Source: a virus
Taxonomy: Duplodnaviria > Heunggongvirae > Uroviricota > Caudoviricetes
Virus record (IMG/VR): IMGVR_UViG_3300029498_000044
Strand: one strand, 5' to 3'
DNA length: 13,541 bases
Shown here: positions 1-12,549 of the stretch, piece by piece
How positions within the stretch are numbered: position 1 is the stretch's first letter
Layout: each line of letters starts with the position of its first letter
Notes under the pieces: model-generated
Database searches by the model: none
Told to the model about the DNA's origin: nothing
The model's input: only the letters and a program-made list of their open reading frames with translations
Position numbers and translations under genes: made by a program

Positions 1-120
1 AGTCTAAAAACTAGTATTAAGACTATCACTTATTTAAGTGATATTGGTTGTCTGGAGATTCAGGGGGCCAGTCTATATCTTTCATACTTACTCTCAACTA
101 TCAAAAGTACAGGATTTATT

Positions 121-645
121 ATGAAGTTATGGCCTGTGTTGACTGGCATTGCACTCTCTTTCACTCTTATAGCATGTAAGGCCCCGACACCACCTAAAGG
201 TGTGCAGCCGATTACAAATTTTGACGCCAACCGCTACCTCGGAAAATGGTATGAAATAGCTCGCCTCGAGAACTGGTTCGAACGTGGTCTGGAACAGGTC
301 AGCGCTACTTATGAAAAACGGAACGACGGAGGGATTCGCGTACTTAACCGTGGATACGATCCAACGAAAAACAAATGGAGCGAGAGCGAAGGTAAAGCAT
401 ACTTTACTGGAGATACTAAAACTGCAGCGTTGAAAGTTTCGTTTTTTGGCCCCTTCTATGGTGGCTATAATGTAATCAAACTGGATGATGAGTATAAGTA
501 TGCTCTTGTCAGTGGTCCGAACAGAGAATACCTATGGATTCTGGCAAGGACCCAAACTATTCCAGATAATGTAAAAGCAGACTATGTGCGTACCGCTCAA
601 AAGTTGGGATTCAATGTCAATGAACTATTATGGGTTAAACAATAA
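121..645 (+). CDS. blc: Bacterial lipocalin (Blc-like) outer-membrane lipoprotein
   Basis: 174 aa. Signal peptide ending in lipobox LIAC. Lipocalin motifs (NFDANRYLGKWYEIAR, KVSFFGPFYGGYNVI, YLWILAR) align with E. coli Blc from memory, clearly divergent. AGGA about 8 nt upstream of ATG. Confidence 0.85.
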   Translation: MKLWPVLTGIALSFTLIACKAPTPPKGVQPITNFDANRYLGKWYEIARLENWFERGLEQVSATYEKRNDGGIRVLNRGYDPTKNKWSESEGKAYFTGDTKTAALKVSFFGPFYGGYNVIKLDDEYKYALVSGPNREYLWILARTQTIPDNVKADYVRTAQKLGFNVNELLWVKQ

Positions 646-663
646 AATCCCCACCCGAAATGA

Positions 664-690
664 TACTTATTAGAAAAAAACCAGCCTTTG
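664..690 (-). terminator. Rho-independent terminator (tR'-like) downstream of Q
   Basis: Stem CCAGCC/GGCTGG (671-676/685-690) with 8-nt loop. On the minus strand it is followed by a 7-U run (664-670). Confidence 0.55.
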
Positions 691-749
691 GGGAGGCTGG
701 CTAAATCAGGAAACAAGCTGTTATATGATAATAACTACGTTGCGATTCC

Positions 750-778
750 AACATTTAAAATGTTAGACTAATGAAAAT
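750..778 (-). promoter_or_regulatory. Candidate late promoter (pR'-like) just downstream of Q
   Basis: Minus-strand TTGCTG (773-778), 17-nt spacer, TAACAT (750-755). Position matches lambdoid pR' and precedes the terminator at 664-690. Predicted short transcript of roughly 80 nt. Confidence 0.35.
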
Positions 779-800
779 CAGACAGCAACTTTTCCTTTAA

Positions 801-1178
801 TTATTTCGAACAATCAGCATCCATCTCCAATCGGAGATCCAACACCATCAGCATGCCCTCCACTACGCCCTCAGCTTTCTGGAGCATCCTGCCAACCCAA
901 CAATCAGATCGCCCATGCTTACGTGCAAGCGCCATAAAAGTCATGCCGCCGACATAATAGTCCACCAATAAATCATGTAAATCGCTGTTGTTTTTTTTCA
1001 GGCGAGCCATACATTCACAAATGATCATCGCGTCATCGTCACAGCATTGCGGACGAGATCTTACTTTTGAAGGAATTAATCCCTTAAAACCGGCGGCAAT
1101 GGACGACCAGGTCACATCTTCATGATTATTAGCCGCCCATGCCCCCCAACGCTCAAGAACCATCTGAATATCACGCAT
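801..1178 (-). CDS. quuD: Late-gene antitermination protein Q (QuuD-type)
   Basis: Translation [24 protein letters not shown]...[10 protein letters not shown]...LRLEMD matches my recollection of DLP12 QuuD. Start moved from the track's TTG (1193) to ATG at 1178 with GGAG 7 nt upstream. Confidence 0.85.
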
Positions 1179-1195
1179 CAACTTACTCCACAAAA

Positions 1196-2245
1196 TTAGG
1201 CCAGCACACCAATTGCCAGCGCGCGATCGATAAATCGAAAAATCAGCTCCAGTTGGGAGCCATACTTCTCTTCAAATGCCACGGTATCCGTATGCAACTC
1301 GTCGTGATGCTTTCTGCACAAAGGCAACACAAAGAGATCATGTGCTTTGGTTCCCATTCCGCCCTGCCCGTGACCAATCAGATGATGCGGATCGTCGGCT
1401 GGCATACCGCAGCAAGCACACGGCTGTGTCTTAACCCAGCGTGTGTATTTCTCCTTAACCCAACGGTGACGTTTAGGCAGCTTCATGAAAGATTCCGGAG
1501 ACTCTGGATCAACGGTGATGCTTACCACCGTCTTTTCCTGTGATGGGTTTTGTTGCTGGTGGGCGTGAGGCAACGGTGCAAGATTTTTTGTGCGCTGTTT
1601 CAATATGCTGGTGGCGGTCTGCTCTCCCGGTACGATGTCGCTTTCGCGGTACACCGAGCAGTTTTTTTCCGCTGGTAATCCCAGCGAGCGACGTAATACC
1701 ACTTCCGGTAGCGCGTCCGCCACCTGATTGCGGACCGCCCACCAGGATAATTCAGCCAGAGATAATTCACGCTCCTGCGTACCGCTTATTGCGTGACCGA
1801 TGACGTCAATCATCCATGCTGACAGGTTTTGATGAGCAAGTTGCTCGAGTGATTCGGATGTCTGGTCACGCAGCTGGTTGTCGCAGTGCCAGCACAACAC
1901 CATTGCGCCGGTACCATAACGGTGAATGACGGTTTCACTGTGGTGATAATCGCCGTGTGGCCACTGGCAGGATTTAACATGGCGCAGTAACCAATCAGAC
2001 AATGCGCCAGCGCCACCAGCAGCACGAATCACTCGTTCGTCGCTGAAAAATGGCAGTAATGATTTATCCTCCGCCAGCGGCTGGCGAACGGCAGGAACGA
2101 CCCCGGACGGCAGATTACGCATGCTTTTCGGTTCCGGCTCCACCAGTACCCGGGTATTGTGGAATACCGGCATGGATTCACGGCCCGGCTTAACGATCAC
2201 CAGCCCGAGTTCCGGTACCAGAACAGGTCGAAGTAATACCCGCAC
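1196..2245 (-). CDS. ydfU: DUF968 / YdfU-like prophage protein with C-terminal Cys/His-rich (HNH-like) motif
   Basis: 349 aa, same length and position (adjacent to Q) as Qin YdfU. C-terminal motif CACCG...HH...CRKHH. GTG start with GGAGG SD, overlapping the stop of the upstream gene. Confidence 0.8.
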
Positions 2246-2909: not shown

Positions 2910-4016
2910 TCAAACAATCTGGAAAATATTTCTTGGATTTGTAATAGGTCTGTTGATGGAGAACAACTCACGAATTAAATCTTGGCTCAAGCCAGTTTTC
3001 ATAAGAATTCTTAGCCAGGTTGCATCATCCAGCATTTCAATCGCCTCGGCCAGCATGCCGGGTTCTTCAGGGCGCAAAAGTTCATCACCAGGTTCAACTC
3101 TCGTATACCCTCTGGAATTAAGATGCATATAGCCAGTTCTTGCCTGTTCCTGGGTCAATAAGCCTAATGCGCTGGCTCGATAAATACACATTTTAAGGCT
3201 GATTTTCCATCTAAGTTTAAATTCAACCAGAGCATTCCAGTCGAATTGCTTACCTCGTATTCGTGGAAATTCTTTAATGAAAGATAACCTGGGAACTAAT
3301 AAGGCGCTCGAAAAGTGATCGGCTTGTGATTCCGTAAGTTTATCACCTGTCGTTATGCCCTCATGCATTACTAAATGCCCTAATTCATGACCTAAATCAG
3401 AGCGAAATCTACATATGCTTTTTTTAACATTGTTCCTGATGATAACAGGCCTGTTATTGTGAACAGTAAAAGCATCAACACGATCATCGACTCCCGTAAC
3501 ATGCGCAACGATTACCCCTAAACTCTCCGCCAATTTAACCATTGATGATATAGGGCCAAGACCTAAATTCCAGGCACGGCGACAATCTTCTGCCACTCGC
3601 TCAATATCATTCGGAGTAAGTAATTCAGCCCCTGGGTGCTCCGGTATGTTAACGTCAGGAAATTCGATTTCACCTTCAACAGCAGAAATTATAATATTAA
3701 GAATCTCAGCCCTGGCCAATACACTATTAGTCAGCGTTTGAGTCCTGGACTTCTTACTCCGAAAATGGCAGACATCACTTTCCAGAGCGTATTTTCGTTC
3801 AGTAAAAAGAAAACTGGACTTAATCATAAGCGCTGAAGATATTAACTCAAGACATTGCTCCGATGGCCTGCACCCCTTCTCCAGTTTGCTAACGAATTGC
3901 TTTGTCTTGCCAATTTTTTCGGCTAACTCTTCACAAGAAAGCCCAACAGCCATTCTCGCTAGTTTGAGCTTATCACCCCGATACTCAGTGAAGTTATTCA
4001 CCTGATGTTCCATCAC
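2910..4016 (-). CDS. HTH_XRE DNA-binding domain fused to ImmA/IrrE-family (COG2856) Zn-metallopeptidase
   Basis: N-terminal XRE helix-turn-helix (about residues 12-68, LARMAVGLSCEELAEKIGKTKQFVSKLEKG). HEXXH motif H210-E-L-G-H214 at nt 3375-3389. First codon is GTG at 4016 or ATG at 4013. Overlaps the upstream gene by about 20 nt. Confidence 0.85.
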   Translation of the reverse strand: MMEHQVNNFTEYRGDKLKLARMAVGLSCEELAEKIGKTKQFVSKLEKGCRPSEQCLELISSALMIKSSFLFTERKYALESDVCHFRSKKSRTQTLTNSVLARAEILNIIISAVEGEIEFPDVNIPEHPGAELLTPNDIERVAEDCRRAWNLGLGPISSMVKLAESLGVIVAHVTGVDDRVDAFTVHNNRPVIIRNNVKKSICRFRSDLGHELGHLVMHEGITTGDKLTESQADHFSSALLVPRLSFIKEFPRIRGKQFDWNALVEFKLRWKISLKMCIYRASALGLLTQEQARTGYMHLNSRGYTRVEPGDELLRPEEPGMLAEAIEMLDDATWLRILMKTGLSQDLIRELFSINRPITNPRNIFQIV

Positions 4017-4809: not shown

Positions 4810-4965
4810 TTACTCCTCAGGTTCGTAAGCTGTGAAGACAGCGACCTCCGTCTGGCCGGTTCGGATTCGTACCTCGCAGAGGTCTTTCCTCGTTACCAGT
4901 GCCGTCACAATGACGGTTAAACAGATGACGATCAGGGCGATTAGCATCGCCTTTTGCTGCTTCAT
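4810..4965 (-). CDS. hokD: Hok-family type I toxin (small membrane peptide, 51 aa)
   Basis: MKQQKAMLIALIVICLTVIVTALVTRKDLCEVRIRTGQTEVAVFTAYEPEE is a canonical Hok/Gef sequence and matches my memory of HokD/RelF. Track ORF 4810..5022 carries a 19-codon upstream extension at the mok-like position. Confidence 0.85.
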   Translation of the reverse strand: MKQQKAMLIALIVICLTVIVTALVTRKDLCEVRIRTGQTEVAVFTAYEPEE

Positions 4966-5169
4966 AGCCTGCTTCTCCTTGCCTTTCGGCACGTAAGAGG
5001 CTAACCTACGTGTGTAGAGCATAGATATGGCCTCAGATTAATGTTAAGCGTCTTGCCGGACGCGTAATGTTAACTGGGGCTTTTCTCTATCTGCCTTTTG
5101 GTGTTCATGCCTGAGACAGATAGCCTCAAGCACCCGCTGCAATTCTACTTAACTCTCCTTTTCCCGCAA
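4966..5169 (-). promoter_or_regulatory. hok promoter and long 5' leader with mok-like start and Sok target
   Basis: Minus-strand TTGCGG (5164-5169), 16-nt spacer, TAGAAT (5142-5147). Leader contains GCTTGAGGCTATCTG...CAGATAG complementary boxes. In-frame upstream ATG at 5022. Confidence 0.5.
5014..5090 (+). ncRNA. Candidate Sok-like antisense RNA (approximate coordinates)
   Basis: Plus-strand TTGCCT (4979-4984), 17-nt spacer, TAACCT (5002-5007) would start a transcript antisense to the mok start and SD. The 3' end is not resolved. Confidence 0.3.
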
Positions 5170-9576: not shown

Positions 9577-10242
9577 TCAAATAAAACCAGCTGCCTTCCG
9601 GCGTTCGTATTCCTGTTTCAGCCGTTCAATTGGCGTTGGCCCTTGCGGGTGTTTAGCCCCTTCCAGTTGTCGTCGCACTGGCGGAACACTCATCCCGTTA
9701 CCAACATGCTTTGCCCATTTCGTCAGTTGCCGTTCCGCAAGTCGTTTTAACTCACCCTGCGTCATCTGGCGCTCAATCCCTCTGGTACGCATTTCGAGGC
9801 AGATGTGGTACAGCACAGGCTGAGGCCACGGATATTTGTCGCTTCCGTCATATCGCCAGGACTCATCACGCCAGCGGCGGTACTCCTCCATCACAGCATC
9901 CACCGTCAGGCCAAATGGATTGGCCCCGCTTTCTGAAATCAGCGCCACAAACTCAGCCAGGTCCGGAGGCCATGTTTCACCCGCCCGGCAGCGGTCCATG
10001 CACTGGCGGCAGACCTGTCGGATTTGCTGCTCAGTCATCGCGCCAATCTGTGCAATCCAGAGCTTCGAAGGTGCGGCCCCGTTCTTCTGGGTCCAGCGGT
10101 TCGAATAAACCTCCCCCATGAGTTCCCACAGCTTCCAGACCGTTTCCGTCGCTGATAAATCCGTTTTCACGTTCCCACTGCTCACGTGCTGCCCGAATTT
10201 CCTGAACTGCCCGTGATGCGGTGCCACCTGGTGCTGCTGCAT
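9577..10242 (-). CDS. Lambda P-like replication protein (DnaB helicase loader)
   Basis: Aligns from memory with lambda P (PPDLAEFVALI, YPWPQPVLYHICLEMR). ATG at 10242 with strong GGGGGT SD. Overlaps the 3' end of the O-like ORF by 212 nt in another frame. Confidence 0.8.
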   Translation of the reverse strand: MQQHQVAPHHGQFRKFGQHVSSGNVKTDLSATETVWKLWELMGEVYSNRWTQKNGAAPSKLWIAQIGAMTEQQIRQVCRQCMDRCRAGETWPPDLAEFVALISESGANPFGLTVDAVMEEYRRWRDESWRYDGSDKYPWPQPVLYHICLEMRTRGIERQMTQGELKRLAERQLTKWAKHVGNGMSVPPVRRQLEGAKHPQGPTPIERLKQEYERRKAAGFI

Positions 10243-11071
10243 GGTTTACCCCCTTGCTGACTGGCTTAACCTGCGCCCTGACGTGATTTACGTGACGGGC
10301 GAATTTCTGCTCCCACTGAACCTGCGTGAAAACTTTCCCCTCCGCTGCCCAGTAGTCCCGGAAAGCGGCAAGTTCAGCAGGTGTAAATTCCGGCTCCGGC
10401 AAAGCCATCCCCCACAACGCAGCCCGTCGTCGAAAATCCGGCGACGGATGCCAGTCATCGACCATCGGAAATTTCCCGATGGGTTCGCTCAGTCCATCCA
10501 GGGATGCAGGTTCTGCTGCCTGCAACGGCGTACCACTCGACTCACTGGTCGGAGCACTCTCGCGCACGTGCGCGTTATGTGTGGGGTTTAATTCTTTATC
10601 TGTATCTTTATCTGTCGTGACTCGTCGTGACATGTCGTGACATATGCGTGACTCGTCGTGACACCCCTCATTCTGTTTTCGTAATTTTTCCCTCTCGCGC
10701 TGCGCTCTCTTGCGCTCTGCCGGGGATTTCGCGGTTTGTGAAACGTTGCCATTGTCCTCTTTCAGGACCTGGCGTTTTTCCCATCCGGTGATTAAATCTC
10801 CATCAAGTACCCGCCCCTGCATTGCCTGTAAAATTGAATCAATTACTTCTTCCGTCACATCAAGCGCACTTGCTAAATCTTCCGTCGTGACATCAATGTG
10901 ACCACGTAGTGACACGCCGTGACATGTCGTGACATTTCGTGACGCGCTCACCAGAAGGTGGATATACACTGCCATCACTGTTGCAATTGGCTGCCCTGAC
11001 ACCCTGGCAATTGTTCGCCACTTAGGGTCATTTGGCATGTCATGCCATAATCTGAGCCAGGCGTTAGCCAT
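10031..11071 (-). CDS. O-like replication initiator (DUF1376 / YdaU-like N-terminus)
   Basis: N-terminus MANAWLRLWHDMPNDPKWRTIARV. Two iteron arrays lie inside the ORF. ATG at 11071 with GAGGTG SD (GTG at 11077 also possible). Confidence 0.75.
   Translation of the reverse strand: MANAWLRLWHDMPNDPKWRTIARVSGQPIATVMAVYIHLLVSASRNVTTCHGVSLRGHIDVTTEDLASALDVTEEVIDSILQAMQGRVLDGDLITGWEKRQVLKEDNGNVSQTAKSPAERKRAQREREKLRKQNEGCHDESRICHDMSRRVTTDKDTDKELNPTHNAHVRESAPTSESSGTPLQAAEPASLDGLSEPIGKFPMVDDWHPSPDFRRRAALWGMALPEPEFTPAELAAFRDYWAAEGKVFTQVQWEQKFARHVNHVRAQVKPVSKGVNHAAAPGGTASRAVQEIRAAREQWERENGFISDGNGLEAVGTHGGGLFEPLDPEERGRTFEALDCTDWRDD
10614..10662. repeat. Iteron array 1: five copies of GTCGTGAC (one variant)
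   Basis: Copies at 10614-21, 10624-31, 10634-41, 10647-53 (GCGTGAC), 10655-62. Spacing 9-12 bp. Preceded by an AT-rich CTTTATCTGT x2 stretch. Confidence 0.6.
10884..10943. repeat. Iteron array 2: six copies of nnCGTGAC
   Basis: Copies end at 10891, 10902, 10913, 10923, 10933, 10943, spaced 10-11 bp (about one helical turn). Confidence 0.6.
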
Positions 11072-11142
11072 ACTCACCTCTTCTGATACCGAATCTTTTT
11101 ACTCACAAATTGCCGGAAGTGATCCGGTATGAATATTGCGAG

Positions 11143-11568
11143 TCAATGCACAGCCACAATATTTCCTGCAGGGCCACCACGATTCATCTGGTTGAAACCA
11201 GCGATCGCCACTGCGACAAAATCATCAGCGTCTCTCACCAGTCGTTCCCGCGTCTCCACCAGCTCCCGAAAATAAGCTGAACTGTGGCTGCGCATTCGGG
11301 CCACCAGCAGAGGCGGCATTGCTTTTTCGATCGCTGGTAACAACGCCTGAATTTTTTTAACCGCATCAGGAGTGTCTTTCTCCACCCAGCGGAAAATTTT
11401 CTGGGTATTGCGAGCCAGGGCTTCCGGATGGCTGTCGTCATATAATTCCGGGAACGTCATACCAAGCTCAAAATAAGCCCGGGTTATTTCAGCTGCCGGA
11501 ACTTTTTCACCGTCCGGATGCGCCCAGGCATTCATCGCCATGCGGATGTGCTCATGCCTGATTTTCAT
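11143..11568 (-). CDS. ydaT: YdaT-like regulator (cII functional analog of Rac-type prophages)
   Basis: 141 aa, MKIRHEHI...IVAVH. N- and C-terminal signature and length match Rac YdaT from memory. Sits between the cro-like and O-like genes. Confidence 0.75.
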   Translation of the reverse strand: MKIRHEHIRMAMNAWAHPDGEKVPAAEITRAYFELGMTFPELYDDSHPEALARNTQKIFRWVEKDTPDAVKKIQALLPAIEKAMPPLLVARMRSHSSAYFRELVETRERLVRDADDFVAVAIAGFNQMNRGGPAGNIVAVH

Positions 11569-11827
11569 GAATCAACTCCGATGCATTTGGTGTGTTAGCC
11601 TTGAATCCAACAGGTAAGCCGTCGGTTGGATTCGGGTAAATATCAGGCCGGAGTTCATGAGGTGTAACCTCGAAATTCGTTACTTCAGCAACACGTAATG
11701 CTTTTTCAGGGCTGAATCTTTCATAGCCCCCCAGCACTCGACTTACATGCACCTGAGATAAACCCGTTAGCTTCCCAAACTGTAGCTGGGTGATATGTTT
11801 CTCTTTTAAATAGTCTCTTAAGTTCAT
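11552..11827 (-). CDS. Cro/YdaS-like HTH regulator
   Basis: HTH segment ITQLQFGKLTGLSQVHVSRVL, followed by an ELRPDIYP motif. ATG at 11827 with GAAGG SD (track start at 11833 is TTG). Divergent from the repressor. Confidence 0.75.
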   Translation of the reverse strand: MNLRDYLKEKHITQLQFGKLTGLSQVHVSRVLGGYERFSPEKALRVAEVTNFEVTPHELRPDIYPNPTDGLPVGFKANTPNASELIHENQA

Positions 11828-11857
11828 AGCCAACCTTCTACGTTATGCCTCGAGCAA

Positions 11858-11886
11858 ATATTAGCCCCGCTAATTTTAAAGATCAA
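11858..11886 (-). promoter_or_regulatory. pR-like early-right promoter with overlapping operator-like TAATATT motif
   Basis: Minus-strand TTGATC (11881-11886), 17-nt spacer, TAATAT (11858-11863). The -10 lies inside GCTAATATTTGC. Confidence 0.45.
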
Positions 11887-11934
11887 TAGCCAGACTATCT
11901 TTGATAATATTGGTAAAACAAATAAACTCTATGT

Positions 11935-12396
11935 ATGAAAAAAACACGCGAAGTGATTGCAACTCCAGAAGCGAGCAAGAATTTAAAAGCCGCATGGAAT
12001 GCAAGAAAAAAAGAGCTGAAGCTGACTCAAGAGCTGGCGGCTGAGTTGTTGGGATTCGAATCTCAAGGCACCGTTAGCCAGTATCTGAACGGCAAGATAC
12101 CGGTAAATACCGACGCTGCGCTAAAATTTGCGGCTCTGTTAAAGGTAAAACCAGAGGACATTCGAGAAGACCTTAAAGACTTAATGAATTATGTAAGATC
12201 ATCAGATACTTATGATGATAACTTTTCAGGCAAAGGATGGAGGCTGGTCAATGAAGAACAGGCAGAGTTACTTAACCTCTTCGAGATTCTACCTGCGTCA
12301 GAAAAAGCCAAACTCCTTAACCAGCTACGTGGACTAAACAAGCTCTACGAGGAAGCCTTCGAGAACATGCTGGCACTAAAGAAACGTAACCAGTAG
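11935..12396 (+). CDS. Prophage repressor, DicA/RacR-like (HTH_XRE, no S24 peptidase domain)
   Basis: 153 aa. N-terminal XRE HTH (LTQELAAELLGFESQGTVSQYLNG). C-terminal ELLNLFEILPASEKAKL resembles the DicA C-terminus. No LexA-type Ser/Lys autocleavage domain. Confidence 0.8.
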   Translation: MKKTREVIATPEASKNLKAAWNARKKELKLTQELAAELLGFESQGTVSQYLNGKIPVNTDAALKFAALLKVKPEDIREDLKDLMNYVRSSDTYDDNFSGKGWRLVNEEQAELLNLFEILPASEKAKLLNQLRGLNKLYEEAFENMLALKKRNQ

Positions 12397-12422
12397 CCAC
12401 CGCTCACTACCCCATCCACAAC

Positions 12423-12452
12423 AAAAAAACCGACGTCTTAGTCGGTTTTTTT
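12423..12452 (+). terminator. Rho-independent terminator after the repressor gene (potentially bidirectional)
   Basis: Stem ACCGAC/GTCGGT (12429-12434/12441-12446), loop GTCTTA. Flanked by an A7 run upstream and a T7 run downstream. Confidence 0.7.
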
Positions 12453-12549
12453 GTGCCATAACTTCTGCAAATCAGCTGTATAACTAATATTTTTCCCTTG
12501 AAAAAACATTTACATAGTTACCAAATCAAAAATATCATACGCCATACTG

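Follow-up and report, generated by a model that had tools for sequence, protein, structure and literature searches.

Replication origins that lie inside the gene for their own initiator are a textbook feature of phages, and in lambda-type origins each iteron has internal dyad symmetry. The lambda ori is located in the middle of gene O, in the segment encoding the inter-domain linker, with the iterons followed by an AT-rich tract along the direction of early rightward transcription (PMC7466680). There are four to six iterons of 18 to 19 bp at a spacing of 20 to 24 bp, and the gene for the P-family helicase loader comes next. Between lambda and Stx phages the number of iterons varies by whole units, adding residues to the protein (PMC7466680). 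[quoted passage not shown] RepA_N-type plasmid initiators (pSK41 RepA, PDB 4pta) are also among the closest known systems, as are DopC and DopE, the products of lambda O/P-derived genes that have been domesticated in some gammaproteobacteria (PMC5509034).

Here, we describe a repeat-bearing initiator gene in a window of 13,541 nucleotides (the whole of the DNA stretch analyzed, from IMG/VR virus record IMGVR_UViG_3300029498_000044). We propose, at a probability of about three in four, that a Qin/Rac-like lambdoid prophage has its theta-replication origin within this gene. The overall layout is of the lambda type: in a gene of 1,041 nt, an array of direct repeats (array B, nt 410 to 456) is followed by an AT-rich tract (nt 457 to 486), as compared with nt 349 to 433 of 900 for the lambda iterons, and a gene for a P-family loader comes next. 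The likeness to lambda drawn in the earlier note does not extend to the iterons themselves, which are 6-bp direct-repeat cores, one per helical turn at 10 to 11 bp, rather than 18-bp units. The locus differs further from lambda in having an additional array (array A) and an inverted motif copy upstream, in the region encoding the N-terminal domain, and in the DnaT-like C-terminal domain of its protein; the position of array A within the coding sequence of a folded domain has no lambda counterpart. [quoted passage not shown] DopC/DopE resemble the window in architecture, with an HTH at the N-terminus, a DnaT-like domain at the C-terminus, and an adjacent P-family gene, and no iteron-like sequences are reported for dopC (PMC5509034). 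By analogy, the window, with its iterons intact and conserved, would be the mobile counterpart that bears an origin.

A Qin/Rac-type prophage and its replication genes

The window is an Escherichia coli prophage of the lambdoid Qin/Rac type; it is 99 to 99.9% identical to several chromosomes, and its genes include hokD/sok, dicB, ydfB, and ydfC. The initiator gene (10031 to 11071, minus strand) encodes a protein of 346 aa, and its stop overlaps by 8 nt the gene for a lambda-P-like helicase loader (9577 to 10038, minus strand; Pfam Phage_lambda_P, E = 5e-16). The loader is 25% identical to lambda P (E = 1e-6), and its RefSeq coding sequence is labeled 'replication protein P.' The operon also includes, upstream of the initiator gene, a YdaT-like gene (11143 to 11568) and a YdaS/Cro-like gene (11552 to 11827), and an HTH repressor gene (11935 to 12396) is divergent. 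Elsewhere, a hokD toxin gene and a full-length sok antisense RNA (4810 to 5135; Rfam RF01794, 117 bits) form a type I toxin-antitoxin pair, and an HTH-domain gene at 2910 to 4013 contains an imperfect period-20 tandem repeat (ATGCCCTAATGCATGACCTAA, 2.1 copies; 3355 to 3399). In an Rfam scan of the window, sok (4960 to 5135) is the sole match, with no known RNA in the repeat region. At the left end of the window (1 to 1200), not every close relative is collinear. The best of the full-length matches take in 92% of the window, in four pieces, and the features that lie under them include an IS3-family transposase; other strains match from position 1203 onward only. The prophage may be defective, with an origin that is intact yet unused.

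The RefSeq label of the initiator coding sequence is 'DnaT-like ssDNA-binding domain-containing protein,' PHROG replication-initiation families match it with E = 2e-116, and both NCBI and PHROG name its family 'phage replisome organizer.' The sole Pfam match of the whole protein is a DnaT-like ssDNA-binding domain at aa 201 to 267 (10271 to 10471, minus strand), in agreement with a Foldseek match of the C-terminal domain to 4ou6_A (TM 0.89, 58% identity). Full-length equivalence to host DnaT was rejected, as the score of the NCBIfam DnaT equivalog, 97 bits, falls short of the cutoff of 201 and the match is limited to aa 192 to 278; the NCBIfam search returned nothing beyond this sub-threshold match. 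The N-terminal domain has no Pfam match even at E values up to 10, Phage_rep_org_N and Phage_rep_O included. In an AF2 model, aa 1 to 100 have pLDDT values of 92 to 97, aa 41 to 60 excepted, and the predicted fold is a winged helix, probably DnaD-like, followed by a basic helix, a linker (aa 139 to 192, pLDDT below 50) that is predicted to be disordered, and the DnaT-like domain. The designation 'O-like' given to this gene previously suits its position and logic, but not its sequence: homology to lambda O was rejected from a BLASTP E value of 2.4 and the lack of a Pfam Phage_rep_O match.

Two phased repeat arrays and an AT-rich tract within the initiator gene

A pattern search of the plus strand locates exact copies of CGTGAC at 10616, 10626, 10636, 10647, and 10657, spaced by 10, 10, 11, and 10 bp. 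Four further exact copies at 10886, 10918, 10928, and 10938, together with the one-mismatch units TGTGAC (10897) and AGTGAC (10908), constitute a second array with spacings of 11, 11, 10, 10, and 10 bp. All 11 GTGAC units (5 + 6) have the same orientation, and the gap between the arrays is 223 bp (10663 to 10885). Tandem Repeats Finder reports period-10 arrays at 10614 to 10662 and 10909 to 10943. The earlier description of five plus six units, phased at about 10 bp and about 220 bp apart, is confirmed.

In gene orientation the motif reads GTCACG(A). Array A (10886 to 10943, minus strand; gene nt 129 to 186, aa 43 to 62) contains six GTCACG-type units at spacings of 10, 10, 10, 11, and 11 bp, and array B (10616 to 10662, minus strand; gene nt 410 to 456, aa 137 to 152) contains five GTCACG units at spacings of 10, 11, 10, and 10 bp; we propose that the latter are the origin-proximal iterons. 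A repeat search puts both arrays into one repeat family, and a 30-nt stretch of array A in the window is 90% identical to array B. The spacer between them (10663 to 10885, minus strand) encodes, in the AF2 model, the helix-turn-helix, wing, and basic helix. Within the spacer, the motif also occurs once in inverted orientation, as CGTCAC on the plus strand (10853 to 10858); this copy lies 33 bp downstream of array A, reads GATGTGACGG on the gene strand, and corresponds to codons D71-V72-T73.

The repeats are far above chance. CGTGAC occurs 13 times in the window versus 4.8 expected, a count reached in 0 of 200 shuffles, and the longest chain of any 5-mer at 9- to 12-bp spacing in the window is 6, as compared with 2 in 420, 3 in 79, and 4 in just one of 500 first-order Markov simulations. 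Because neither shuffles nor simulations ever match the observed count or chain, chance is excluded.

With a period of 10 to 11 bp, the motif is translated in all three frames, as V-T, (C)H(D/G), and S-R. The VTT and HD peptides pointed out previously are thus present, but they are an incomplete account, as the S-R frame is also read. In the AF2 model, array A encodes a loop or hairpin, modeled at lower confidence, that connects helix 29-45 to helix 63-70, and array B with the AT-rich tract encodes aa 137 to 163, within the disordered linker. The suggestion that the repeats constrain the sequence of a protein linker fits array B and the AT-rich tract, but not array A, which encodes a part of the folded N-terminal domain.

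The AT-rich (GATAAA/GATACA)n tract (10586 to 10615, minus strand) is 70 to 74% AT versus 52% for the window, and no 31-mer in the gene is less stable than that at 10586 to 10616, which ranks 61 of 13,511 in the window (top 0.5%). Such a tract had been noted before the first array on the plus strand (10616 to 10662), and it is real; in the minus-strand direction of the gene it lies downstream of that array. It adjoins array B directly, whereas array A has no such neighbor, and we propose that it is the DNA-unwinding element. Lambda also has a palindrome just past its AT-rich region. Here, a perfect 14-bp GC palindrome (CGCGCACGTGCGCG, 10561 to 10574) lies about 12 bp past the AT-rich tract, in the C-terminal module of the gene; in an O157 relative the palindrome at that site differs yet is perfect (CGCGCATGCGCG), and in phage Rac-SA53 it is imperfect. 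Two terminator-like matches are this GC palindrome on the non-coding strand (10561 to 10583) and were rejected, their frequency being at or below chance. A promoter scan of 10000 to 12500 gave no promoter-like site in the repeat region. DnaA boxes beside iterons are common in plasmid origins and dispensable in lambda; with at most one mismatch, the DnaA box TTATNCACA does not occur in 10550 to 10950 and is not enriched in the window (13 versus 11.8 expected).

Conservation of the arrays among related loci

We compared the gene with 38 related loci from a genome collection, together with E. coli and phage relatives. GTCAC units are present at matching gene coordinates in both arrays in about 24 loci, with genomic GC contents of 34 to 69%, and the unit positions conserved in the family are gene nt 129, 139, 149, and 160 and approximately 387 to 420. 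Array length changes by whole units, with 4 or 6 in array A and 3 to 5 in array B; the majority of relatives have four units in array A, and the window has a 21-nt, two-unit insertion. The distance from the last unit of array A to the first of array B is nearly constant across the family (about 227 to 229 bp). The inverted GTGAC (gene nt 214; nt 193 in the majority) is found in most GTCACG-class loci, and the codon for V72 is GTG in 15 of 15. In the complete genome of phage Evi, arrays A and B are the only GTCAC clusters, and a second, distant iteron cluster like the oriR of SPP1 was not found.

Selection on the DNA was examined at synonymous sites of codons for conserved amino acids. To avoid circularity, the motif mask was drawn from the window only, and entropy was then scored in 17 loci from outside E. 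coli. The third position has an entropy of 0.18 bit for the 12 codons that fall in the motif, as compared with 1.27 bit for the 63 codons elsewhere (Mann-Whitney p = 1e-6). The reading of the motif in three frames, together with near-invariant synonymous third positions, argues that the arrays are conserved as DNA repeats and not as protein repeats. The AT-rich tract is kept as AGATAAAGATAAAGA even in Pseudothauera (69% GC) and Castellaniella (67% GC); hosts this rich in GC would be expected to use GAC and AAG for Asp and Lys, and this tract is likewise conserved as DNA. In three loci from Ventosimonas and Entomomonas (34% GC), the N-terminal domain and a long (GATAAA)n tract are kept with no evident iterons at either array position; in one of these (L038) the tract has 8 copies.

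Motif classes and module exchange

Relatives with 45 to 62% identity in the N-terminal domain have other motifs in place of GTCACG. Four loci (L025, L027, L036, and L037, from Pantoea, Enterobacter, Marinobacter, and Sphingomonas) have GTAACG, and four others (L031, L033, L035, and L040) have CGAACG(C). In these motif-switched relatives, the most frequent 6-mer of region A is also the most frequent 6-mer of region B, and in L027 the inverted unit co-varies to GTTAC. An identical 30-nt block is present in both arrays of L037, so the two arrays evolve in concert, although this could partly reflect gene conversion rather than selection. In a locus from Erwinia phyllosphaerae (nt 141 to 224 and 411 to 451), both arrays have a dense 5-bp CGTCA register (CGTCACGTCACGTCACG), with a total of twelve CGTCAC copies, a different phasing solution in the same family. 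Comparison of the motif classes gave no clear answer as to which residues determine specificity. The 'recognition' helix of the winged helix is acidic and nearly invariant between classes, class-specific differences in the first ~125 residues lie in the loop that array A encodes and in the basic helix that follows the wing, and the C-terminal domains vary independently of motif class.

Megablast splits the initiator gene at 10593 to 10613. In its N-terminal half, the gene is about 88% identical to phages Evi and Tritos, which have an unrelated C-terminal domain; in its C-terminal half, it is about 92% identical to the ydaU of phage Rac-SA53, a gene with an unrelated N-terminal domain and no GTCACG. 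Identity to Evi stops and identity to Rac-SA53 starts within these 21 nt (10593 to 10613), placing the joint of the N- and C-terminal modules at the AT-rich tract itself. Among the relatives, the N-terminal domain with its arrays and AT-rich tract is joined either to the DnaT-like C-terminal domain or to C-terminal regions that are not alignable with it, as judged by eye from the alignment, several of these being unalignable with each other too. The loaders that follow are either P-like or DnaC/IstB-like, and within 2.5 kb the N-terminal domain is the only window protein common to all related loci. These comparisons show that the N-terminal domain, arrays, and AT-rich tract are inherited as one cassette.

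Several relatives have other arrangements. The ydaU gene of Rac-SA53 (nt 420 to 520) shares the (GATACA)n tract and the C-terminal module, and just upstream of the tract it has repeats of its own (GTGTTCAAAC and GTGTTTGAAC, with TGTTCAA three times), which may be an iteron set of another specificity. In loci from Serratia and Pantoea (L039 and L041, nt 320 to 370), the N-terminal domain is fused right after the wing to another middle and C-terminal part ('YVYYV...GISRNPWAR'), which may recall a GIY-YIG or T5orf172-type motif, and ACTACG/CTACGT repeats are found in place of the usual arrays. In phage Evi (21077 to 23438), the initiator has the same N-terminal module and a different C-terminal domain ending in IPPGFRG; LygF and a regulator come next, and no adjacent helicase-loader gene is recognizable.

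A candidate origin and how it might work

The proposal of an origin embedded in the initiator gene, already put forward in the earlier note, draws strong support from conservation of the arrays at synonymous sites, from the concerted switching of motif in both arrays, from the retention of the AT-rich tract in GC-rich hosts, and from the co-inheritance of the arrays with the N-terminal domain alone. We infer that array B and the AT-rich tract are the core origin, putatively read by the N-terminal part of the encoded protein. That the initiator binds the iterons and melts the AT-rich tract is indirectly suggested by the co-variation of motif class in both arrays and its inheritance with the N-terminal domain alone. 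The putatively DnaD-like winged-helix region would bind GTCACG units head-to-tail, probably with assistance from the loop that array A encodes, the basic helix at aa 117 to 134, or both, and with one unit per helical turn, the proteins would stack along one face of the DNA. At array B, beside (GATAAA)n, this could nucleate an O-some-like complex, with melting of the AT-rich tract. Some 230 bp upstream, array A and the inverted copy might contribute additional initiator through looping or local concentration, or act as a control site. The DnaT-like C-terminal domain could hold the exposed single strand and/or dock the P-like loader with host DnaB, and early rightward transcription of the YdaS-like, YdaT-like, initiator, and P-like genes would cross the origin, as it does in lambda.

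The arrays could alternatively be sites that the initiator binds for control rather than to open the DNA, through autoregulation, handcuffing control of copy number, or incompatibility, or, in a partial form, array B with the AT-rich tract could be the origin and array A the control site. Two arrays of the same motif 223 bp apart with a conserved inverted copy, and the fact that array B alone adjoins the AT-rich tract, are what such a role would look like, and the incA and incC arrays of plasmid P1 are a precedent for separate control and origin arrays. The partial form is compatible with an embedded origin. In its full form, a control role leaves the strongly conserved AT-rich tract beside array B unexplained, and it leaves the Evi genome, which has no other GTCAC cluster, without another candidate origin; overall, we regard this alternative as unlikely. 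A factor other than the initiator might also bind the repeats (a host protein, the YdaT-like or YdaS-like protein, or the repressor), or they might be a recombination hot spot for module exchange, and both the module junction right beside array B and the fact that the class comparison does not pin down the motif-reading residues of the initiator can be cited in favor. We think this very improbable. The YdaT-like, YdaS-like, repressor, P-like, DUF1627, and DnaT-like C-terminal domain proteins are missing from most loci with GTCACG arrays; the motif class differs among close enterobacterial hosts (GTCACG in Escherichia, GTAACG in Enterobacter and Pantoea), which is unexpected for a conserved host factor; and the point of exchange is the AT-rich tract and not the iterons.

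The DNA repeats could finally be a by-product of a repetitive peptide (VTT, CHD, or SR) selected as protein, given that the encoded peptides are conserved across the family. This interpretation is effectively refuted, as a period of 10 to 11 bp is no multiple of 3 and one DNA word yields three peptides, four- and two-fold degenerate third positions are invariant within the motif whereas the same amino acids use all codons elsewhere, and array B encodes part of a linker predicted to be disordered. A further idea, speculative and improbable, can be added to that of an embedded origin. Because class-specific differences lie mainly in the loop and basic helix, and the recognition helix is acidic and invariant, the loop or hairpin encoded by array A (aa 46 to 62, 'NVT..RGH.DVT') might itself help to read the iteron, in which case the same nucleotides would serve both as a binding site and as the code for part of its reader. 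Any change of the iteron word, as from GTCACG to GTAACG or CGAACGC, would then alter the reader as well, and the new word would be carried over to array B by gene conversion.

Discussion

The locus is very probably a new example, and a well-supported one, of an origin within an initiator gene, from an initiator family that is widespread and unstudied. Among 5,426 complete E. coli genomes, 2,564 match at least one half of the gene and in 658 the match extends over 80% or more of the gene, and the N-terminal domain family extends to Pseudomonas, Bordetella, Chromobacterium, and others. We found no studied phage carrying this initiator module, no experimental report of binding, unwinding, or replication for this initiator family, and no prior description of this origin in the open-access literature; an account in a subscription journal is possible.

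The distinguishing features are the short direct iterons at one-turn spacing, the second array within the region encoding the N-terminal domain, and the three natural specificity classes, and the locus is a clear case of a DNA element dictating protein sequence, in hosts ranging from 34 to 69% GC. The analysis offers a map of the proposed origin, in which two arrays and an inverted unit are combined with a putative unwinding tract, and the GTCACG, GTAACG, and CGAACGC classes could be swapped to study the co-evolution of initiator and origin specificity. Origin fragments of other phages are known to titrate initiator, and a cloned fragment of this origin might do likewise. The map also predicts which co-resident prophages would compete for the same initiator, and if array A does encode part of its own reader, new origin specificities would have a way to arise from within the gene itself, as would replication incompatibility groups among the prophages that share a cell.
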